Sequence record: OL615013
DNA: 64,000 nucleotides
Reading direction: 5' to 3' (one strand)
DNA from: Shigella phage ChubbyThor
In this document: positions 5,288 to 60,451 of the stretch, piece after piece
Numbering within the stretch: position 1 is the stretch's first letter
Layout: every line of letters starts with the position of its first letter
Position numbers and translations under genes: made by a program
Notes under the pieces: generated by a model
Told to the model about the DNA's origin: nothing
What the model saw: the letters and a program-made list of their open reading frames with translations, nothing else
Database searches by the model: none

Positions 5288-5318
5288 AAAGGAGCTGCTA
5301 TTATAGCAGCCCCTTCAT
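5288..5318 (-). terminator. intrinsic terminator hairpin (GCUGCUAUAAUAGCAGC) followed by U-run on minus-strand RNA
   Basis: Perfect 7-bp palindrome gctgcta-tta-tagcagc between stop of 5344..6210 gene and kinase start; U-tract on minus strand. Confidence 0.55.
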
Positions 5319-8957: not shown

Positions 8958-10004
8958 TTAGTTAGACTTGAGATACTGCTCGAAGTCGTCAATGGAAGCC
9001 GTGTTCTTGGCATCCGGTGTAGACTGAGACTGAATTTGAGTCTGAGTCTGTGACGGCGCGGCCTGCTGTTGTTTCAGGCTGTCTTGAGCAGTTGGCTGCT
9101 GGTTGACGGGCTGCTGGTGAGCAGTCTGGGTGTTAGGGGCATGTGCCATCGTGGCCGCACCACCTTCAACCAGAGGCTGGCCATCAGGGATTGCCAGAAC
9201 TTTACGCAGACGCTTTTCCAGAGAGTCGTAGTCTTTGAAGTTAGCCGGATTGAAGAATTCAAACAGGCTGTGTTCACGAGACCACACGTCTTCCATGTAG
9301 GCTTCGTCGTCGCTCAGTGGAGCCGGAGCAGCCCAACTGACGTTGGAGAAGTTGGCCACCAGACCTTCCCAGTTCCCAAACTTCTTCTGCTCACCAAAGA
9401 GCTTCAGGTTCAGGTTGGCACCTTCCCACAGATCGAACGGATCGAATTTAGGGTCGGTTGGGAATTTCGGGTTCTGCGCCTGATCCAGGATTTTCTTGAT
9501 GGCGTTACCAAACTCCAGCAGGAAGACCTTGCCGTTGTTTTCCGGTACGTTGGCATCGTTGATCACCAGGATGTTGGCGTAGTATTTGGTGTCAGGCAGA
9601 CGTTTCTTCAGGATGTCCTTCAGCTTTTCGTCGTTCGTTTCTTTCTGCTGCGCCCACAGCGGACGGTCATGGTCGCGCACCGGATCGTCGTTGCCGAACG
9701 TCTGAGGTGAGTTCTCAATGTACCAACCACCAGGTCCCTGGAACTGATGCTTCATGATCATGGCGCAAGGGGTCAGGATCTGATCTTTATCGATCGTTCC
9801 TTCTTCCTGTGCCTTGATGTCTACCAGTGGGACTGGCAGGAAGCGGATGGTGTTCTCGGAGATGCCATCTTTGTTCCAAGTCCATTTCCAGATGCGAGGA
9901 TCCTTCTGGAAGCCGGACTTCTGGCCTTGCTGTGCAAGACGCGCCTGCATTGCGTCAGCTTGCTGACCACGGGACGCTTTCAGACGATCGAATAAATTAC
10001 CCAT
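8958..10004 (-). CDS. 32: single-stranded DNA-binding protein gp32
   Basis: 348 aa; IRFLP, YYANILV, PENNGKVF, LWEGANLNLK blocks collinear with T4 gp32 (IRFLP, YWANILV, PENEGKVF, CPWEGANF); acidic Gln/Ser-rich C-tail. Confidence 0.85.
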   Translation of the reverse strand: MGNLFDRLKASRGQQADAMQARLAQQGQKSGFQKDPRIWKWTWNKDGISENTIRFLPVPLVDIKAQEEGTIDKDQILTPCAMIMKHQFQGPGGWYIENSPQTFGNDDPVRDHDRPLWAQQKETNDEKLKDILKKRLPDTKYYANILVINDANVPENNGKVFLLEFGNAIKKILDQAQNPKFPTDPKFDPFDLWEGANLNLKLFGEQKKFGNWEGLVANFSNVSWAAPAPLSDDEAYMEDVWSREHSLFEFFNPANFKDYDSLEKRLRKVLAIPDGQPLVEGGAATMAHAPNTQTAHQQPVNQQPTAQDSLKQQQAAPSQTQTQIQSQSTPDAKNTASIDDFEQYLKSN

Positions 10005-10071
10005 TTCTTAATTCCTCTGTTTCCGCCCCTCAGGGCTATTCTGTTACATGTATTTTCAGTTTGCTACAAAG

Positions 10072-10089
10072 CGGGGTAATTATACCCCG
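10072..10089 (-). repeat. palindromic stem-loop element, family A copy 1 (CGGGGTAAT-TATACCCCG) in gp32 5' leader
   Basis: 7-bp stem cggggta/taccccg; same element recurs at ~45764 and ~46325. Confidence 0.6.
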
Positions 10090-10102
10090 ATACTACATTG
10101 AT

Positions 10103-10342
10103 TTAACCTTTAAGCACTTGATTTGCTGGGTCAATTTCAATAATGTCGAACACGTCCGAAAACGTCTTCTTGCCTTCCTCGTGGGTATGGTACTCAACGA
10201 CATATGAGCGACCATCAGGGGTAACGTAACGAATACGATCCGTCTGGTCGGCATGCTCGTTCAGGCTACCCACTCGCCAGCGCATTGCGCCAGGAAGAAA
10301 CTCGGCAGCTTTCATTGCGCTGTAAATTGATTCTTTGCTCAT
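10103..10342 (-). CDS. hypothetical protein
   Basis: ORF track 79 aa. Confidence 0.4.
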   Translation of the reverse strand: MSKESIYSAMKAAEFLPGAMRWRVGSLNEHADQTDRIRYVTPDGRSYVVEYHTHEEGKKTFSDVFDIIEIDPANQVLKG

Positions 10343-16549: not shown

Positions 16550-17011
16550 CTACTCCGCCAGGGTGATCACAACCATATTTAAGACTGTGTCGATAGCTCG
16601 GCCTGTTTCCTCTTCATGGAGGGTTTCGGCGCGGAGGTGTACGTCGGTGATGAAATTGTCGATGTGCATTGACGTCAGGTACGGGCGGTGCTGGCTGACC
16701 GGACGGTTGATCAGTACATAGTTGCGCAGTGTGTTGAAGTCCTGCTGAGAGCACCCTGTGGTGTCGATACGAAGGAAGCGTTCATTGTGGCTTGTCTTCA
16801 GTTCAGTTACTTTGCCGAGGTAGACCAGAGGTCCATTGCGACCGATACGGAACATAACATCAACAACAGACTTGAAGATTTCGCGTTCAATCAGTGCGGT
16901 GGGTGACCAGCAGATCTCTTCTTTGTCGTCGGCGTACAGGGTGTCGATCACCAGAGGGAGTTGAATGTAACCGAAGTTGTGCAGTGGATTGGTGAGTACT
17001 TTGTTTGTCAT
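16550..17011 (-). CDS. hypothetical protein
   Basis: ORF track 153 aa; preceded by conserved leader TTGAAAGCGGGAACTATATC-ATG. Confidence 0.5.
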   Translation of the reverse strand: MTNKVLTNPLHNFGYIQLPLVIDTLYADDKEEICWSPTALIEREIFKSVVDVMFRIGRNGPLVYLGKVTELKTSHNERFLRIDTTGCSQQDFNTLRNYVLINRPVSQHRPYLTSMHIDNFITDVHLRAETLHEEETGRAIDTVLNMVVITLAE

Positions 17012-17087
17012 GATATAGTTCCCGCTTTCAATTTGTGGCGAATGCCAATGAATTACTGGGAAGTATAAGCGCAGGGATTATAGAAGT

Positions 17088-17110
17088 AAAGCCCCTCATT
17101 GAGGGGCTTT
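17088..17110 (-). terminator. stem-loop (AAAGCCCCTCattGAGGGGCTTT), probable terminator of nrdH transcript
   Basis: 10-bp perfect stem between nrdH stop and next gene. Confidence 0.5.
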
Positions 17111-23922: not shown

Positions 23923-23940
23923 AGGGGAGTTGCCTCCCCT
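23923..23940 (-). repeat. stem-loop element family B copy (AGGGGAG-GCAA-CUCCCCU on minus RNA, GNRA tetraloop)
   Basis: Identical 18-mer also at ~49833; near-identical at ~807. Confidence 0.6.
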
Positions 23941-30315: not shown

Positions 30316-30389
30316 GATATAGTTCCTTCGTTTCAAGTTGGTGTCGTACTGCTTATGGAATGAAGTATAGGGAAGGATATTGAAGAAGT

Positions 30390-30410
30390 AAAGGGGCGAA
30401 AGCCCCTTTT
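30390..30410 (-). terminator. intercistronic hairpin/terminator (AGGGGCgaaaGCCCCT with flanking A/T runs)
   Basis: Between stop at 30423 and conserved leader of next gene. Confidence 0.5.
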
Positions 30411-40873: not shown

Positions 40874-41557
40874 TTACACCTCCACCGCGTGAGACTTCAG
40901 GAGTTCATCAATCGCTTTCTGACCCATGTAGGAGAATGGGGTGCGCTGGTAGAATGCCCACAGAACCAACTGAACTACAGCGCGGGAACGGGTTTCGGCT
41001 CGCATCACCAGGTCGCTGAAATGAGGAGACTCAGCCGTCCATTGGATCTCTTCGCCCAGGTCTTGATTACAGGTCACAGAGATGCGGAACTTGTTGCACA
41101 GATTGTCGACTTCTTTGTACGCATCGGTAGACACCCGAAGTTGGTCTGCATGCGCCCATGGTGTCGTGACGATTCTTTCTCCCATCACTTTATCAGAGAT
41201 AAACCAATCAATGGATTCAACAAACTTGCCGAAATGGTCGATGCGATAAATGCAGTCTCCCCCTTCCATAGAACGCATGGCATGATAGCGAGCGTCGATT
41301 TCGTTGTTGTGCATCGCGTTGAAGTCGATGAACACGCGACGCGCCAACACAACATCTTCCGGCTCCAGAGGGATGTATTCCCCTTCGTTGCTAGACCTCC
41401 GGATGTTCGGATAATGTAGAATGCCGCTTAAATGCCCAGTGCAATATACATAACGAGGTCCAACACCCCCGACACGAGCATGAGCGACATAGGATGGTTC
41501 TGTGAATCGCAAGTGGCCTTGATCGGCACCGACGATAATAGAATAAAGGTTTTCCAT
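40874..41557 (-). CDS. hypothetical protein
   Basis: ORF track 227 aa; preceded by conserved leader ...TTTGAGAGAACTATATC-ATG. Confidence 0.5.
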   Translation of the reverse strand: MENLYSIIVGADQGHLRFTEPSYVAHARVGGVGPRYVYCTGHLSGILHYPNIRRSSNEGEYIPLEPEDVVLARRVFIDFNAMHNNEIDARYHAMRSMEGGDCIYRIDHFGKFVESIDWFISDKVMGERIVTTPWAHADQLRVSTDAYKEVDNLCNKFRISVTCNQDLGEEIQWTAESPHFSDLVMRAETRSRAVVQLVLWAFYQRTPFSYMGQKAIDELLKSHAVEV

Positions 41558-43657: not shown

Positions 43658-44488
43658 TCATTGGAATTCAACTCCATACCTTTCAAGCCATTTATCACAA
43701 GTTAAAGGATCCCAACCATTATCTAACCTTCGAATAATCGGATTCACTTTAGCCCAGATCCCAGAAGAATTGGAACCGAATACTTCTTTAATGGCTTCTC
43801 CCTTGGTCTTACCTTTCAATATATGGTAATGTATGTGGGCTGCCCAACACCACCAATTATCCCTATCCGGAGTCCATCTTGGCTTCTCCCAAGGCATTTG
43901 CTCTCTGGAGGTTCTGGTAAAAGCCTCAACACGTTTCCTTTCTTGGTCCGATGTCAATTTATTGGTTAGGCTCTTTCCATAACAGTGATGGTGCTCTCCT
44001 CTCTTGACACCTGCATTTCTCTTCGCAAAGAATTGTTTCAGTTCAGGGTCTTCCTTGCGCTTGTCTTCATAGAATTTCAGCAGTGAATCTGAAGTTGCAT
44101 CTTTGGCTGCCTGAGACTTCTTTTTACCATACATCGGGTTGTTAGCCCCTCTGTTCTCTTCGGACAATCTCGCGGCGTATTTCTTACGCATTTTGGCGAA
44201 GAGATGTGAATTAACTCTGTGGCCATTCCTTCTCAGGATCATCAGCGCCTTTACCATACACGTATCCGGCAGCGCCAGAGCGAGACACACGTGAGCAATA
44301 TAGTGGACGCGGTGTGGTAATTTGATTAAATTGTTCTTATCTTTCTTGAATTGAGGAAATAGGGCGGCTGGAAGGATGTGGTGAAATTCTCCTTCCCCGT
44401 TGTAATCTGAATAGGCTGAAAGCAATTTCACATATTTGCCTACAAAGTGCGGTTTGCCACCTATTGTTAAAAGATATTCTCTTTTCAT
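43658..44488 (-). mobile_element. free-standing HNH homing endonuclease gene
   Basis: 276 aa; EFHHILPAALFP...HRVHYIAH HNH motif plus basic repeat region. Confidence 0.65.
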
Positions 44489-44946
44489 TTGTAGTGACTA
44501 TCACTGACCGTCCGGTACTTCACACCCTTGAACTGCTTGGCGACCTTGACGAACTCCATCGCTGGCATGCCCACTTTGTAGACCTTGATGCGCTGGCGGT
44601 CATCCATGTTCAGGGCGGCGACATAGCGGTGTGAGCCGTCGACCACATAGTTATCAGAAGACACCCAAACCCGACCCATGGGCTTCTTGTTTCTGATGTT
44701 CTTCATGATCTTCCAGACCTTCATCTTGTTGATTTCGTTCTGGGTGAGACGGAGCGATTTGATAGGAACCTGACCAGCGTCGATGGTGATGCCAAGTTCC
44801 TCCAAGTAGTCATGGAACGCCTGCTGCTTGTCATCGTCGATCTGTGGCATAGAAGAACGAGAAAGCCCGAGGTTTCCAACAGGAATCCTCAGGCCGTTGA
44901 TAATGTTCAACCAGTCTATGAAGGAAGACATGAACATGAGATTCAC
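44485..44946 (-). CDS. ParB/sulfiredoxin-fold nuclease-domain protein
   Basis: 153 aa; LRLTQNEINK and VVDGSHRYVAA (DGxHR-type motif). Confidence 0.4.
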   Translation of the reverse strand: MNLMFMSSFIDWLNIINGLRIPVGNLGLSRSSMPQIDDDKQQAFHDYLEELGITIDAGQVPIKSLRLTQNEINKMKVWKIMKNIRNKKPMGRVWVSSDNYVVDGSHRYVAALNMDDRQRIKVYKVGMPAMEFVKVAKQFKGVKYRTVSDSHYK

Positions 44947-44970
44947 CTCGGGATATGGATTATCCCTTAG

Positions 44971-45081
44971 TTAGGCGTGAAAAGTCTTACACAGGACGGC
45001 TCCGAGATATTCACACAACAAAACGATCACGACGCCCAATGAACACCCAATAAGCCAACCCCAAAATTCAATACTCACCAT
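44971..45081 (-). CDS. small hydrophobic peptide (~36 aa), translationally coupled (TGATG) to upstream gene
   Basis: MVSIEFWGWLIGCSLGVVIVLLCEYLGAVLCKTFHA; below ORF-track cut-off. Confidence 0.3.
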   Translation of the reverse strand: MVSIEFWGWLIGCSLGVVIVLLCEYLGAVLCKTFHA

Positions 45082-45368
45082 CACACCTCGTCTTCTTCAG
45101 GTCCACCATCAATCAGGATACGAGCGGTGTCGAAACCTTCCCCGCCTGTGTTCAACAGCTTGGTCAGATCATCAAGGGTATCGACAGGACCAAGATCAGC
45201 CTTGCGCAGAATGAACTCGAGAAGGCCGTAGAGCGCTGTTTTGTACCGTTCACCGTCGATATCGTTTTTGACTTTCATTAAGTCAATAATCGCGTCTGTC
45301 TCCCTGAAACCTGTTTCAACTTCACTGCGCACCATAGAGAATAGAGCGAGTTCTTCGTCCCTTTTCAT
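45081..45368 (-). CDS. hypothetical acidic protein
   Basis: ORF track 95 aa. Confidence 0.4.
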   Translation of the reverse strand: MKRDEELALFSMVRSEVETGFRETDAIIDLMKVKNDIDGERYKTALYGLLEFILRKADLGPVDTLDDLTKLLNTGGEGFDTARILIDGGPEEDEV

Positions 45369-45739
45369 AACGTACCCCCAACAGAGATCATGAACTCTTC
45401 TTCAATGGTCGTGACAGGGCGGCGGTTGCGGGTTTCGATCATGAAGCCCCAGCCGCCGTCGGCGACGTTGCCAAAGGTCTTGACGCCAAAGGTCTTCTTC
45501 CCGTTGGAGCAGGCATAGAAGTCCAAGATGAACGGACTGCCCTGATTGTCGATCCCACGGTTTACACCATCCGCTACACAGCGCTCAATCATCTTCCCGT
45601 TCTTATACAGAACGAGGTCTTGACCATATGCCTTGAAAGCATAAACGCCGTTGGTAGACACTCCGGTGATGACAGGAGGAGCGGAAACAGCAGAGAAGGA
45701 AGCGCCCAGCAGGGCAACGGCGAGGATTAACTTTTTCAT
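45365..45739 (-). CDS. secreted protein (signal peptide), function unknown
   Basis: ORF track 45365..45931; start at MKKLILAVALLGASFSAVSA (~45739); conserved leader upstream. Confidence 0.5.
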   Translation of the reverse strand: MKKLILAVALLGASFSAVSAPPVITGVSTNGVYAFKAYGQDLVLYKNGKMIERCVADGVNRGIDNQGSPFILDFYACSNGKKTFGVKTFGNVADGGWGFMIETRNRRPVTTIEEEFMISVGGTL

Positions 45740-45763
45740 GATATAGTCTCTTGGTTTCAAATG
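45740..45763 (-). promoter_or_regulatory. conserved translation-initiation leader (TTTGAAACCAAGAGACTATATC-ATG)
   Basis: Member of a recurrent leader family seen also at ~17012, 30316, 41558, 46299, 46598. Confidence 0.55.
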
Positions 45764-45785
45764 GGCGGGGTAATCATACCCCGCC
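45764..45785 (-). repeat. palindromic stem-loop element family A copy 2 (GGCGGGGTAAT-CA-TACCCCGCC)
   Basis: 9-bp stem; near-identical to copies at ~10072 and ~46325. Confidence 0.65.
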
Positions 45786-45791
45786 GTGGGT

Positions 45792-46298
45792 TTATAGGGT
45801 AACAAGTGATACGGTAAAAACCATCGTCCCGTCTGTTGCCATTTTTCTTGAAACTGGTATGACGCGAGGCTGGCAGAATATCCATTCTTTCTCCATGGAC
45901 GCCAAGTCCAGCATATCCATTTCTGATTCATCGCCTTTGTTCACAAATTTTTCTAGAGAACCATAGACATTAAGCCCCTCCGGGAGTCCGTTTCGATGTT
46001 TGTAACAAATGCGGGCAACAGCTTTGGTTCCGTACGATTTAGAAAATTGTTTGGCCACATGCTTCAGTTCACTGAAGCTAAGACAAGAATCCCATGTCTG
46101 GAACATGTCGCCTCGTTCAAACAACATCTCTAAACGCGCAACGTCCTCCTTAGGCAGCCCGCGATAAAGTGTGGTCGTCTGTGGCTCGCGTAATTCTTGC
46201 ACCAGATCACGGACGGCAGGGGAAACAGTACCGGGGCGCATGATGTGGGACTTATCATGGGCGAGGTAAAATAAATCTTGAATTTGTTGATCGGTCAT
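45792..46298 (-). CDS. candidate mono-ADP-ribosyltransferase (R-S-E type), low confidence
   Basis: 169 aa (start MTDQQIQ); ordered motifs TTLYRG (aromatic-Arg), WDSCLSFS (STS-like), GDESEMD/MEKEWIF (ExE candidates). Confidence 0.3.
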   Translation of the reverse strand: MTDQQIQDLFYLAHDKSHIMRPGTVSPAVRDLVQELREPQTTTLYRGLPKEDVARLEMLFERGDMFQTWDSCLSFSELKHVAKQFSKSYGTKAVARICYKHRNGLPEGLNVYGSLEKFVNKGDESEMDMLDLASMEKEWIFCQPRVIPVSRKMATDGTMVFTVSLVTL

Positions 46299-46322
46299 GA
46301 TATAGTTCCTGCATTTCAAATA
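46299..46322 (-). promoter_or_regulatory. conserved translation-initiation leader (TTTGAAATGCAGGAACTATATC-ATG)
   Basis: Same leader family. Confidence 0.55.
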
Positions 46323-46324
46323 GA

Positions 46325-46342
46325 CGGGGTAATCATACCCCG
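46325..46342 (-). repeat. palindromic stem-loop element family A copy 3 (CGGGGTAAT-CA-TACCCCG)
   Basis: Identical core to copy 2. Confidence 0.65.
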
Positions 46343-46357
46343 CCCAAAGTTATAGAA

Positions 46358-46597
46358 TTAACTGATGTGCTTCAGAAGAGCGAAGAGGATCGCGGCCTTG
46401 GCTTTCACCTTGCCGACGACGCCTGTCTCAACATCGACTTCTTCAGCAACCCACTCTTTGCCCTTCTTGCTGATGATAACGTCACGGCGCTGGGCATATA
46501 CCTCTTTGGTCGCATACACACGACGGAACCCTTTAGCGCGGAGCAAGCCCCAATTGCGATCAATCTCTACTGAAGTTTCGACCATTTTGTTCTTCAT
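46358..46597 (-). CDS. hypothetical basic protein
   Basis: ORF track 79 aa; leader variant GTTGAAAGGTAAGATTATATC-ATG. Confidence 0.45.
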   Translation of the reverse strand: MKNKMVETSVEIDRNWGLLRAKGFRRVYATKEVYAQRRDVIISKKGKEWVAEEVDVETGVVGKVKAKAAILFALLKHIS

Positions 46598-46720
46598 GAT
46601 ATAATCTTACCTTTCAACCTGGTGAACCCCATCGTTCGCCAGTTATTGAATAATAGGATATTCCTTAGAGGAAGTAAACCCCTAAAAGTAAAAATCCCCA
46701 ACAAACGTTGGGGACTTCTG

Positions 46721-47047
46721 TTATTTGCGCAGGGCAACCACGAGTTCAGCGAGTTCGCCCATGGTAGGGTCATCGCCTTTACTACCCAGCCAGCCGTCGT
46801 CGATTTCGACCTGAAACTCTTCTTCGAGGTCCATTACAATTTCGATAGCGTCCAGTTCGTCGCCGCCGAGATCCTTCTTGGTGCGGAGACCAGCCAGCTT
46901 GTCCAGGGCATCGTTGATTACCACTTCGGCATCGACGATCCCTTTGATGCTACTCTTGTCCTCATCACTGACTTCCAGATTCAGATTGTCAGTGGCGTAC
47001 TGAGCCAGATGACGCATGACTTCAACATATGTTGGTTTACTGCTCAT
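46721..47047 (-). CDS. acyl-carrier-protein homolog lacking the phosphopantetheine-attachment Ser (GGDELD instead of GADSLD)
   Basis: 108 aa; ACP helix II signature KDLGGDELDAIEIVMDLEEEFQVEI; acidic. Confidence 0.6.
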   Translation of the reverse strand: MSSKPTYVEVMRHLAQYATDNLNLEVSDEDKSSIKGIVDAEVVINDALDKLAGLRTKKDLGGDELDAIEIVMDLEEEFQVEIDDGWLGSKGDDPTMGELAELVVALRK

Positions 47048-47089
47048 GCTACTTCTCCCAAAGAAAGGCGGGTTGCCCCGCCCGTTGGA

Positions 47090-49294
47090 TTAGATTTTGA
47101 TCTCTTTCTCTGCCAGTTCGGCAGTGACCTTGTACTTCACGCCATCCACTTCAACTTCCATGGTTGACTCTTCCAGGTCGAGGTCGGTGAACCAGCCGTG
47201 GCCAGCAACGATACCATACACCACTTTAGACAGCGTCTTGTTCAAGGCGCGGACTTCAGTGATGGCCGCCTTGGCAGCAGCGTCGATCCAGTTTTCGATC
47301 AGCTGTTTCTGTACGGCTTCAGGCACGGCAGTGATCGCAGGAGACTTCACGAATGCTTCGTATTCCTTCAGAGCATTGGCGATGAACAAGTCACCCGCAT
47401 TGAGTTTCTTGTTCTCGGCAATCTTCTTCTGTACTGCCGCGATGCTAGGCAGAGAAGACGCTCCAGCGATCTTAACGTTCAGCTCACGGCTCATGTAGAC
47501 ATCCGTGGAGTCCTTCAGTTCGGTCTTCGGTGAGAAGCCGTAATCGCGGATGCCGTAGGAGGACAGGAACTCTGCCGCCTCAGCGCCGTACTGTACTGCC
47601 AGGCCTTTGGCGTTACCTTTGCCAACCAGTTCATCACGGAAGAACTTCAGCACCTTCTGCTTGCCTTTCAGGGCTTCCAGACGGACATTATCCGCAAAGA
47701 ACTGAGCAGCACTGATGTTCTTGACCATGGCGCGGTTGACCAGCGGTACGCTTTCCAGGTTCAGGACAAACACTTCCGGACCACCGAACACATGGACGCC
47801 CATCTGGCACAGATTGGTTACAACTTCAACATCAGCCCTGAACGGCAGAGTCTTCACGTTGATGATGCCGTCTTTGACGATGGTGTAGTTGCGCCACTGG
47901 AAAGTATCCAGTTCTTCAGGCAGACCGAACTTCTTCTGCACGAACTCCGGAATCGCCACAGTGCCGTGCTGGACAGTGCGTACACTGATATTAGGGCGTT
48001 CGGAGTTATAGACCAAATCGCTGATTGGCACAACACCCAGATCGTTGTTAGGTTCGAACGTCGGGTTCCACTCTTCGTGCTCGGCCAGCTTGAGAGCCAG
48101 GGCTTTGCGCTCTTCTTTGGACTCGGCGTTCGCGATCTGTTCTGCCAGCTTGTCTTCGGTATCGTCCAGTTTCTGAGCCGTACCGCGACCGATGCTCTTG
48201 TAGGAGAACATAGGATGTTTGGTAGCAACACACACGCCAGCTTCAGCCAGATACGTCAGCACGTCAACGACGGTCGTCGCATCTTCAGCTGGAACCAGGT
48301 CATAATCAATACCGTCAACGCCGCGCAGCTGGTCATCAACGATGGCCTGGGTCAGATCAACTTTGATGTTGGAGTAGTCCTGCTTGGTGAAGCAGTTGCT
48401 GTACTGTTTGATGAAGCGAACGTCACCCGTTTTCTTCAGGGCAGCCCACACCAGGTCTGCGTCCATGATGTGTACGCCGTAGAACGCCAGCACGTATGCC
48501 GCCTGGATGTCCGCCAGCGCATCAAGCTGGTCGATCATGTTAGGATTGACGACCCACAGCTTCGTGACGCTCTCAGGGATGCTCACGTGGCCGATAGGAT
48601 GGTCTTCATCCGGCTGTACCGCCAGCACAGTTGCTACGCCGTTTTCAACGTAGATGGCATGATCATACAGCAACGGAACATCAACAACCACTTTCGGCAC
48701 CGAGGACTTCAGTACGTTTTCCAGCTCGGTCTGATATTCGGTCTGGCCTTCGGCGAACACGTGAGTCGCGCCGGAACGTTCAGACATCAGAGCCAGCAGT
48801 TCGCGGTTACAGTACCAGCCGTATTCGATGAATGTGACGTTGTCGAAAGCGGAAGGAAGTTTTTCGGCGGTCTCCAGGATCTCATTGGAGCGCCAGCAGT
48901 TGTCATAACCATCGGTCATGAACGCCAGGTTGTTGACGTAGCCGGGTTTCTTCAGGTCACGCGCAGTATCCATCGCCAGTTTCAATGGTTCAACAAAACC
49001 AGTACAGCCGGATGGTTGTAGGAAGCGGTCGATCAGTTTGTTCAGCTCGCTCAGGTCAGATGCTGCACTAACCTGACGGCCAGCGAACACAGTACCAAAG
49101 TCGCCACGGGATGAGAAATACAGAACACTCACAGTATCTTCCGGTTTCACCAGAGAAGGCAGGTTCTCCTTCAGATGCTTACGGACTTCAGGGAGCGCAC
49201 GGTACATCGAATAAGAGATGTCCACAACGATTACATGGTTGGACGGGGCAGCAGTCGCAACCGCATTCTTAAATTCTAATGATTCAATCATCGT
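47090..49294 (-). CDS. von Willebrand factor A (vWA) domain protein, large
   Basis: ORF track 47090..49375; start MIESLEF; MIDAS motif VVDISYSM (DxSxS) near N-terminus; rest unassigned. Confidence 0.55.
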   Translation of the reverse strand, partial: TMIESLEFKNAVATAAPSNHVIVVDISYSMYRALPEVRKHLKENLPSLVKPEDTVSVLYFSSRGDFGTVFAGRQVSAASDLSELNKLIDRFLQPSGCTGFVEPLKLAMDTARDLKKPGYVNNLAFMTDGYDNCWRSNEILETAEKLPSAFDNVTFIEYGWYCNRELLALMSERSGATHVFAEGQTEYQTELENVLKSSVPKVVVDVPLLYDHAIYVENGVATVLAVQPDEDHPIGHVSIPESVTKLWVVNPNMIDQLDALADIQAAYVLAFYGVHIMDADLVWAALKKTGDVRFIKQYSNCFTKQDYSNIKVDLTQAIVDDQLRGVDGIDYDLVPAEDATTVVDVLTYLAEAGVCVATKHPMFSYKSIGRGTAQKLDDTEDKLAEQIANAESKEERKALALKLAEHEEWNPTFEPNNDLGVVPISDLVYNSERPNISVRTVQHGTVAIPEFVQKKFGLPEELDTFQWRNYTIVKDGIINVKTLPFRADVEVVTNLCQMGVHVFGGPEVFVLNLESVPLVNRAMVKNISAAQFFADNVRLEALKGKQKVLKFFRDELVGKGNAKGLAVQYGAEAAEFLSSYGIRDYGFSPKTELKDSTDVYMSRELNVKIAGASSLPSIAAVQKKIAENKKLNAGDLFIANALKEYEAFVKSPAITAVPEAVQKQLIENWIDAAAKAAITEVRALNKTLSKVVYGIVAGHGWFTDLDLEESTMEVEVDGVKYKVTAELAEKEIKI

Positions 49295-49832: not shown

Positions 49833-49850
49833 AGGGGAGTTGCCTCCCCT
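49833..49850 (-). repeat. stem-loop element family B copy (AGGGGAG-GCAA-CUCCCCU)
   Basis: Identical 18-mer to ~23923. Confidence 0.6.
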
Positions 49851-57510: not shown

Positions 57511-57540
57511 ACGAAAAACAGAGGCCATTATAGCCTCTGT
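57511..57540 (-). terminator. intrinsic terminator (ACAGAGGCuauaaugGCCUCUGU + UUUUU)
   Basis: Between stop at 57564 and start at 57494. Confidence 0.65.
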
Positions 57541-57563
57541 TGTTTAGTGAATAACTGTATATC

Positions 57564-60372: not shown

Positions 60373-60451
60373 TTCAGCCTCTTGTAGAAGAATCATTTCA
60401 AACGGGCGGGAAAGCCCCGCCCACACATTATAGCATCAGGCTGGAGATTGA

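Follow-up and report, generated by a model that had tools for sequence, protein, structure and literature searches.

Three near-identical GC-rich hairpins, referred to here as Family A, are found in a 64,000-nucleotide stretch of the genome of Shigella phage ChubbyThor (sequence record OL615013; this whole stretch is called the window). Family A is best explained as one family, defined by sequence, of the GC-rich stem-loops that lie between cistrons in early and replication-gene operons of the Ackermannviridae. Our reading of the sequences, which we hold with somewhat better than even confidence, is that these hairpins act as leaky terminators or as RNA-end-protecting stem-loops inside mobile junction cassettes that resemble the PeSLs (promoter-early stem-loops), which T4-type phages carry as mobile regulatory cassettes (Arbiol et al. 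2010, PMC2839356; Comeau et al. 2014, PMC4122927). Hairpins of this group are already in the literature as predicted terminators; a role as exchange junctions in the Ackermannviridae was not found described in the literature searched.

According to the proposed mechanism, a very stable hairpin (approximately -17 to -19 kcal/mol), with a short run of U behind it that forms part of an AT-rich hybrid, would most likely function as a leaky intrinsic terminator or attenuator and also as a barrier to 3' exonucleases. Neighbouring cistrons would be insulated as a result, while part of the transcription would still read into the next gene. At the DNA level, as the comparison of relatives shows, the ~60-bp cassette around the hairpin serves as a homology patch for swaps of accessory genes. 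The copy upstream of gp32 has the same kind of hairpin around a conserved TATAAT, which is plausibly the -10 of a gp32 promoter. Nothing already established is overturned by these results, and the function proposed at the RNA level is deduced from sequence.

The Family A hairpins are intercistronic and conserved among relatives

The window represents an Agtrevirus-like, Vi1-like phage of the Ackermannviridae. The best of 275 phage records matching positions 44000-49000 in a megablast search were all Ackermannviridae, and the closest relative, Shigella phage MK-13 (Agtrevirus), showed 95.8% identity over 85% of the 44000-49000 query and 98.4% identity in the immediate region. The minus strand carries nearly all of the genes in the window and is therefore the mRNA-sense strand for all three Family A elements.

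The sequence GGGGTA-N4-TACCCC was found at exactly three sites in the window (10072-10089, 45764-45785 and 46325-46342), where near-identical hairpins had been reported by the original prediction, and all three are located between minus-strand genes, which confirms the intercistronic placement (Table 1). Counted over both strands, the three exact sites of the pattern GGGGTAATNNTACCCC give six matches. Shuffled sequences would be expected to give 0.16 with two mismatches or fewer allowed, and a count of six did not occur in any of 100 shuffles. Copy 1 starts 6 nt past the stop codon of a 168-aa gene and ends 24 nt ahead of the next ATG, copy 2 starts 15 nt past the stop codon of a 79-aa gene and ends 26 nt ahead of the next ATG, and copy 3 starts 13 nt past the stop codon of a 79-aa open reading frame (ORF) and ends 67 nt ahead of the ATG of gp32. 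The stems had been described as 7-9 bp long with a 4-nt loop, which is correct for perfect pairs (9, 7 and 7 bp), but copy 2 reaches 11 pairs on the sense RNA if G·U pairs are included. The stem-loop of copy 1 has a predicted folding energy of -18.1 kcal/mol alone and of -19.2 kcal/mol with a few flanking bases. Within longer sense RNAs, copy 1 folds at -19.6 kcal/mol (76-nt context, z = -3.2), copy 2 at -22.3 kcal/mol (77-nt context, z = -3.4, with none of 200 shuffles as good) and copy 3 at -15.8 kcal/mol (76-77 nt).

Orthologous regions were compared among MK-13, Ag3, CBA120, Mutine, LIMEstone1, two Klebsiella Taipeiviruses and approximately 15 IMG/VR genomes. The 22 distinct cassette sequences obtained, together with the variants of the gp32 site, gave an alignment of 20 distinct hairpin cores; the comparisons of stem substitutions and of cassettes below thus represent about 20 distinct sequences. 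The palindrome was found at orthologous sites in these related genomes. Copy 1 has orthologues in MK-13, CBA120, Mutine and IMG/VR genomes, copy 2 is kept in 14 of 14 IMG/VR orthologues and in the two Taipeivirus genomes, and copy 3 is the sequence named 'Torf075' in Ag3. In the complete MK-13 genome (158,755 bp), which was used for the genome-wide search, exact copies were located only at the three orthologous places, and some looser relatives, such as GGCGGTATCATTACCGCC, were also present. A scan of IMG/VR for the exact palindrome gave 96 stretches, mostly on unrelated contigs, and only the Ackermannviridae contigs of ~150-160 kb were informative. From metagenomes, 34 stretches were obtained with the conserved end of the gene (79 aa) that precedes copy 2; only one of them was a true orthologue, and no diversity was gained.

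Absence from related genomes had been named beforehand as a sign of chance palindromes, and the conservation of the hairpins shows the opposite. GGGG/CCCC stems are common in the genome, so that the resemblance of the gp32 copy to the other two is somewhat less improbable than the shuffle test suggests. Nevertheless, the shuffled sequences did not reach the observed count, and orthologous positions in Agtrevirus, Limestonevirus, Kuttervirus and Taipeivirus still carry the hairpins, with changes that preserve pairing. The possibility that these are functionless chance palindromes has virtually no probability left and is refuted by the conservation of the hairpins.

Stem substitutions favor folding of the transcribed strand

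In the alignment of the hairpin cores, 96.7% of the cells are paired. One pair shows a double change from G-C to A-U (in Ag3), and in the sense orientation, every remaining one-sided change results in a wobble pair (G·U or U·G); in a hand count, about eight independent transitions keep the pairing in the sense RNA only, as compared to one that breaks it. For the two cassette sites (i.e., copies 1 and 2), the sense-orientation folding energies of 14 out of 15 distinct variants lie between -16.8 and -19.3 kcal/mol, whereas the antisense values fall as low as -9.0 kcal/mol. Among 19 variants, including four from the gp32 site, the sense RNA has an advantage of 2 kcal/mol or more in 13 and a disadvantage in 3. 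Both wobble pairs and folding energies thus favor the sense strand, suggesting selection on the fold of the transcribed strand, which argues for a role at the RNA level. Since the genomes are close relatives, this is a modest indication that selection acts on the sense-RNA fold of Family A.

At the copy 1 site, the loop itself varies, being TGAT in the window, TCTT in CBA120 and Mutine, and ATCA in two genomes, and it is therefore the fold rather than the loop sequence that matters there. In these two genomes (IMGVR_UViG_3300045988_142553 and IMGVR_UViG_2974515140), TGAT has been reverse-complemented to ATCA in the orthologue of 45764-45785, with the stem and flanks unchanged. This inversion shows that the arms interact in the DNA now and then, and that the loop sequence is not needed at this site.

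Copies 1 and 2 are part of junction cassettes at which genes are exchanged

Copies 1 and 2 are located within a direct repeat of ~60 nt, of which 50 nt show 86% identity. In the sense orientation, this repeat consists of a (T)CTATAA box, the hairpin, a ATTTGAAA leader, a Shine-Dalgarno site and the ATG. More specifically, a CTATAA or TTCTATAA box just past the upstream stop codon is followed by the hairpin, by (C/U)AUUUGAAA and by AGGAAC or AGAGAC, UAUAUC and AUG. The general order of the cassettes is a stop codon, a (T)TC(A/T)ATAA box, a hairpin of 7-11 bp, the AU-rich AUUUGAAA, the Shine-Dalgarno sequence AGGA and AUG, and the cassette alignment shows conserved AU-rich blocks on both sides of the stem with variable spacers between them.

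The 79-aa gene upstream of copy 2 and the hairpin-plus-leader that follows it are present in all regions compared. Across the relatives, four different full-length genes are found after this same hairpin and leader, i.e., a 124-aa gene (MKKLIL product), the ADP-ribosyltransferase-like gene (MTDQQIQ product), denV (MTRINVIP product) and a 92-aa gene (MTDQRSIA product); in one further genome, a short remnant ORF alone is found at this position. These arrangements are mixed within genera and do not track them. In the window and in MK-13, the ADP-ribosyltransferase-like gene is flanked by two hairpin copies. The two copies at 45.7-46.3 kb are thus the ends of a swappable gene cassette, a feature that the original prediction had not included. 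In Ag3, this gene is absent and there is a single hairpin, with a left flank similar to that of cassette 2 and a right flank similar to that of cassette 1, which is the outcome expected from recombination between two direct repeats. The comparison shows that the ~60-bp cassette is the homology patch for the insertion, loss and exchange of accessory genes, among them denV, small ORFs and the ADP-ribosyltransferase-like gene. The hairpin-plus-leader cassette is a place of gain and loss for genes that include a repair gene, denV, as well as an ADP-ribosyltransferase-like gene, and its defined sequence of ~60 bp could serve as a landing pad in phage engineering.

An alternative explanation for the cassettes is that the palindrome is an element of the DNA itself, which would extrude as a cruciform or hairpin and be the target of a structure-specific recombination or replication protein, its main role being an attC-like exchange of gene cassettes. 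The position of the cassette boundaries at the hairpin, the hybrid copy in Ag3 and the exact loop inversions, which show at least occasional interaction of the arms in DNA, are all consistent with this explanation, and the authors of the PeSL work speculated likewise for GGGG...CCCC stems (PMC2839356). However, G·U pairs are tolerated on the sense strand only. On the opposite strand, these positions turn into A·C mismatches, a situation not favored by a symmetrical cruciform. In addition, no dedicated recombinase is evident beside the cassettes, and ordinary homology of ~50-60 bp would suffice for the recombination system of the phage, as homology patches of less than 50 bp are sufficient in T4 (PMC2839356). 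A DNA-level element is hence considered very improbable. Slightly more improbable still is a broader scheme in which the Ackermannviridae, and perhaps T4-like phages generally, would possess an integron-like exchange of accessory genes; the GGGG...CCCC hairpin, as single-stranded or cruciform DNA, would be the recognised site, and a -10 in the loop would make the inserted gene self-expressing only when unfolded. If this were true, footprints of such exchange would be seen in the hybrid copy of Ag3 and in the exact inversions of the loop, and the cassettes would be more than passive homology patches.

Family A resembles terminator hairpins with weak tails

Two sequences of this family, copy 3 and the Ag3 hybrid copy, were listed as the rho-independent terminators Torf075 and Torf138 in the Ag3 paper (Table S2, PMC3121705). 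Similarly, the orthologue of cassette 2 in the LIMEstone1 record (75717-75743) is annotated as a putative factor-independent terminator. These annotations are predictions (Mfold, TransTerm, WebGeSTer), not experiments, and they concern the same orthologous sequences, in which a GC-rich hairpin with a short T run behind it is located past the stop codon, in the orientation of transcription. The reading proposed here would explain why the annotation 'putative terminator' recurs in widely used biocontrol and therapy phages (Vi1, CBA120 and LIMEstone relatives).

In the window, all three copies form a stable, GC-rich, co-oriented stem-loop in the sense RNA (-11.4 to -18.1 kcal/mol), located 6-15 nt past the stop codons. 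When tails and stems were scored for 18 intergenic hairpins in the window (19 rows, with copy 2 in two stem versions), the full stems of copies 1 and 2 were the strongest of the 18 (approximately -18 kcal/mol); copy 3 had a value of -11.4 kcal/mol. Furthermore, the upstream box of Family A is a one-base variant of TTCAATAA, which precedes several canonical T-tailed hairpins in MK-13. Based on these sequence features, we concluded that Family A would be the weak-tail end of the terminator-hairpin class of this phage.

Several observations weigh against a role in termination. The sense-strand tails of the three copies (CAUUUGAAA, UCUAUUUGAAA and CUUUGUAGC) have only 3-5 T in the first 8 nt and are followed at once by the ribosome-binding site of the next gene, with no promoter between. 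Their T-tail scores (-2.2, -2.9 and -3.3 to -3.6) are the weakest in the set, the canonical hairpins scoring -4.0 to -5.4, and a terminator scan that required at least 5 T in 8 nt listed none of the three copies; with tails this weak, termination by Family A could be negligible. Downstream of copies 1 and 2, no promoter stands out by eye or in the promoter scan. An efficient terminator at these places would silence the next genes, and termination would therefore be at most partial. Similar hairpins with strong stems and weak tails are found right after a -10 hexamer at 60404-60422, at Porf138/Torf139 in Ag3 and at ACP-gp133 in Magnus; these would consequently be located at mRNA 5' ends, which points to stability and not to termination. 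The orthologues are close relatives, and covariation in the stem is thin as a result, with double changes in no more than 2 of the 9 pairs. Finally, no usable transcriptome or transcript-end map for Ackermannviridae or Kuttervirus was found in the literature searched, so that termination and stabilisation are both inferred. The initial judgment that there is no convincing U-tract was hence a fair one, with T-tail scores of -2.2 to -3.6 at the weak end of the range. The hairpins are indeed poor matches to a textbook terminator. The conclusion drawn in the original prediction, that they are something other than terminators, is not supported, in view of the Ag3 and LIMEstone1 annotations and of the box that also precedes canonical terminators. 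On the whole, the original interpretation is partly supported.

The same observations bear on the view, taken in the original prediction, that these are pure RNA stability or processing elements without termination. In this case, the hairpin would mark or protect RNA ends produced by endonucleolytic cuts in the AU-rich single strands on either side (UUCUAUAA and AUUUGAAA). It might further bind a phage protein, or prevent the ribosome-binding site of the following cistron from becoming structured. The combination of weak T tails with very strong stems would be accounted for, as would the conservation of the AU-rich blocks on either side of the stem next to variable spacers, the equivalent hairpins at predicted 5' ends of promoter-proximal transcripts and the apparent selection on the sense-RNA fold. 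On the other hand, no cleavage or binding motif was identified in the elements, and a search of both regions with the covariance models of Rfam 15 yielded sub-threshold chance matches only and no family. RNase E prefers RN|WUU, to which the flanks correspond only loosely. RNase III processing sites comprise ~20 bp or more of double-stranded RNA; the stems of 7-11 bp in Family A do not represent such sites, and even a stem of 9-11 bp is shorter than the classical substrates. As both readings need the same fold, this one is not separable from that of a leaky terminator by sequence alone; we consider it a rather unlikely explanation, to which about one chance in a few can be given.

A second family of hairpins, (A/G)GGGGAGGCAACTCCCC(T/C), is found in the sense orientation at 807-824, 23923-23940 and 49833-49850. 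It also has weak T tails, and its Ag3 orthologues are listed as terminators.

Comparison with PeSLs and with stabilising stem-loops

In reporter assays, the stem-loops of the RB49 PeSLs, described as 'generally GGGG...CCCC', bring transcription to an end; their recombination takes place within the loop (PMC2839356; PMC4122927). Like these elements, Family A is part of a repeated intergenic cassette that contains a GGGG...CCCC stem-loop and ends with a Shine-Dalgarno sequence and ATG, and it is located in a variable region, where flanking genes are present, absent or replaced between close relatives. As indicated by the hybrid copy in Ag3, a crossover can be placed within the stem-loop region. 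Unlike the PeSLs, which carry a strong σ70 promoter just 3' of the stem-loop, copies 1 and 2 have 24-26 nt between the stem and the ATG, which leaves no room for such a promoter. Family A has at best a -10-like hexamer in the loop, and the candidate promoter at copy 3 overlaps the stem instead of being 3' of it. Moreover, PeSL stem-loops have been shown experimentally to terminate transcription, whereas termination by Family A is predicted from the sequence and the T tails are weaker. PeSLs have been described in T4-type phages (RB49/phi1, T4/PST and KVP40/nt-1), whereas Family A is found in the Ackermannviridae. Since no promoter is located just downstream, Family A can be likened to a promoter-less (or promoter-overlapping) PeSL, rather than regarded as a member of this group. 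The idea of modular shuffling that was developed for PeSLs would thereby be extended from T4-type phages to the Ackermannviridae.

Stem-loops that stabilise intercistronic RNA include the REP elements of E. coli and the CUUCGG hairpins of T4 intercistronic regions. Family A resembles these elements in being a stable hairpin between cistrons, in the apparent selection on the sense-RNA fold and in forming sequence families. It differs in that its loop is no special tetraloop such as UUCG or GNRA, and in that its members are single hairpins within a longer conserved cassette.

Canonical PeSL-like composites, consisting of a hairpin, TTTACT, N17 and TATACT, are found elsewhere in the window on the minus strand (~17060-17110 and 30362-30409). 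In these composites, the T run that belongs to the terminator hairpin (AAAGCCCC...GGGGCTTT) also provides the -35 (TTTACT) of an early promoter, whose TATACT is located 17 nt downstream.

Loop hexamers as possible promoter elements and the gp32-upstream copy

A further explanation is that the hairpins contain promoters. The loop sequence TATAAT or TATGAT would be a σ70-type -10, the weak -35 (TTAAAT, TTAATT or TTACCC) would overlap the upstream stop codon, and the stem arms would represent the spacer and the discriminator. Transcripts would then start ~7 nt downstream without the left arm and would therefore not be terminated by the element itself. The hexamer pairs are TTAAAT-16-TATAAT for copy 3 (3/6 and 6/6 matches), TTAATT-18-TATGAT for copy 2 (3/6 and 5/6 matches) and TTACCC-18-TATGAT for copy 1.

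Support for this explanation comes mainly from the gp32 site. Upstream of gp32, no other non-coding columns are conserved as well among nine diverged genomes as GGTTAA, which is invariant, and GTATAAT, in which GTATAA is invariant. The hairpin around TATAAT is kept in Agtrevirus, Limestonevirus and a Taipeivirus-like lineage, one of them with a G·U pair. In Kuttervirus, TTAACT-16-TATAAT has been retained, and the stem has decayed to -2.8 kcal/mol. The retention of TATAAT where the stem has decayed fits a σ70-type -10 in the loop, i.e., a gp32 promoter overlapped by a terminator-like hairpin; the original prediction had not included this conserved hexamer. In addition, the extended string upstream at the copy 2 site of the window (TTAATTCTATAA) is also found in other genomes at their gp32 site (there as TTAATTCAATAT), and the Ag3 family hairpins at Porf067 and Porf237 have a TATAAT loop with a usable -35 or a TG motif.

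However, only 3 of 6 positions match in the -35 hexamers, whose conservation is in part imposed by the stop codon. GGTTAA upstream of gp32 includes the stop codon of the preceding ORF. The spacer at copies 1 and 2 is 18 nt long. A generic promoter scan called none of the three copies, in the case of copy 3 because the -35 has only 3 of 6 matches. The early promoters of this phage have a near-invariant TTTACT, which is absent from Family A. Also, at the copy 1 site, the hexamer is destroyed by the loop inversion in two genomes (TAATCA) and reads TATCTT in CBA120 and Mutine, and the stem is nevertheless kept. As a general account of Family A, the promoter explanation is thus doubtful. On sequence grounds, the loop hexamer of copy 3 could quite possibly be the -10 of a gp32 promoter, even if we would not call this probable, whereas it is improbable that the hexamers of copies 1 and 2 are promoter -10 elements.

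Three other promoter candidates were considered and not adopted. With a position weight matrix from 15 late-gene sites of MK-13, which themselves score 9.9-17.9, copy 3 scored 3.7 and copies 1 and 2 scored -1.3, so that a late promoter of the T4 type (gp55-dependent) was discarded. The TATAA box is not supported as a -10 upstream of the hairpin, as its last base is C, A or T depending on the orthologue and each of the two copies has a different -35 candidate. The TTGAAA of the leader was discarded as a -35, as inspection showed no -10 at a usable distance before the ATG.

The hexamer TATNAT (TATAAT, TATGAT or TATCAT) is found in or across the loop of an unusually large share of intergenic hairpins, including those at 5294-5310, 57517-57541, 10072-10089, 45764-45785, 46325-46342 and ~41580 (upstream of the gene starting at 41557) in the window and those at ~50089 and ~28222 in MK-13. 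For two TATNAT-loop hairpins, an early promoter with the loop hexamer as the -10 was called in the Ag3 paper (PMC3121705). The late promoters of this phage group have the sequence CTAAATAcccc, unlike TATAAATA of T4. For several late genes (upstream of 68361, 73517, 84843 and 100688 in MK-13 and upstream of 63337 in the window), the promoter core forms one half of an inverted repeat, and the opposite arm, GGGGTATTT, adjoins the Shine-Dalgarno sequence and ATG.

The leader of gp32 contains another small hairpin, AGCCC-N4-GGGGC, at ~10026-10040 on the minus strand, 25-40 nt 5' of the ATG, which is kept in most of the nine diverged genomes. By analogy with T4, where gp32 regulates its own synthesis, this hairpin is a candidate operator for gp32 autoregulation.

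Genes and sequence elements around the hairpins

Table 1. Coordinates of the Family A hairpins, their cassettes and associated features in the window
Feature	Position	Strand	Description
Copy 1	45764..45785	-	plus strand GGCGGGGTA-ATCA-TACCCCGCC; 9-bp stem, 4-nt loop
Copy 1, sense RNA	45785-45764	-	GGCGGGGUA-UGAU-UACCCCGCC; 9-bp stem
Copy 2	46321..46346	-	perfect 7-bp core at 46325-46342; 11 pairs on sense RNA with G·U
Copy 2, sense RNA	46346-46321	-	(UGGG)CGGGGUA-UGAU-UACCCCG(UCUA)
Copy 3	10072..10089	-	sense CGGGGUA-UAAU-UACCCCG; 7 bp; plus-strand loop ATTA; between 79-aa ORF and gp32
Junction cassette 1	45737..45797	-	CTATAA box 45792-45797, including stop codon; leader CATTTGAAACCAAGAGACTATATC 45740-45763; ATG 45737-45739
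Junction cassette 2	46296..46357	-	TTCTATAA box 46350-46357; leader TCTATTTGAAATGCAGGAACTATATC 46299-46324; ATG 46296-46298
168-aa ADP-ribosyltransferase-like accessory gene	45792..46298	-	between both cassettes; PHROG 832 'RNA polymerase ADP-ribosylase', E = 7.8e-15
Conserved 79-aa gene	46358..46597	-	PHROG 804; hairpin cassette always 3' of it
124-aa gene	45365..45739	-	PHROG 5474; downstream of cassette 1; one of at least 4 alternative downstream modules
gp32 single-stranded-DNA-binding protein gene	8958..10004	-	Pfam PF08804, E = 1.4e-56; downstream of copy 3
Candidate σ70-type promoter	10079..10106	-	TTAAAT 10101-10106, 16-nt spacer, TATAAT 10079-10084 (loop and adjacent stem bases)

The RefSeq annotation of MK-13 and CBA120 agrees in naming the 168-aa gene an RNA polymerase ADP-ribosylase. 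A Pfam search with the three small flanking proteins found no families, and PHROGs supplied names only. The N-terminus of the 124-aa protein, MKKLILAVALLGA, was judged by eye to be signal-peptide-like.

The leader TTGAAA-N4-GGAACTATATCATG has four matches in the window, as compared to 0.02 expected, and two of these precede genes without a Family A hairpin. As an initiation leader, TTGAAA-N4-GGAACTATATC-ATG is common to the unrelated minus-strand genes starting at 17011, 30315, 45739 and 46298, and looser copies are found at 41557, 46597 and 56155, with or without a hairpin in front. This leader could be a common ribosome-loading or repressor site of early genes.

The 8-nt box TTCAATAA (window 46350-46357, minus strand, for the Family A form TTCTATAA) recurs just past stop codons and 5' of many GC-rich hairpins, at many intergenic sites of MK-13. 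It is also found within the spacers of early promoters, in the arrangement TTTACT-tc-TTCAATAA-N-TATACT; a conserved motif in a promoter spacer is unusual.

An ORF of 276 aa with a NUMOD3 motif is located at 43658-44488 on the minus strand. This ORF, which is probably a free-standing homing endonuclease, is missing from MK-13 and most other relatives; their similarity to the window starts immediately downstream of the ORF.

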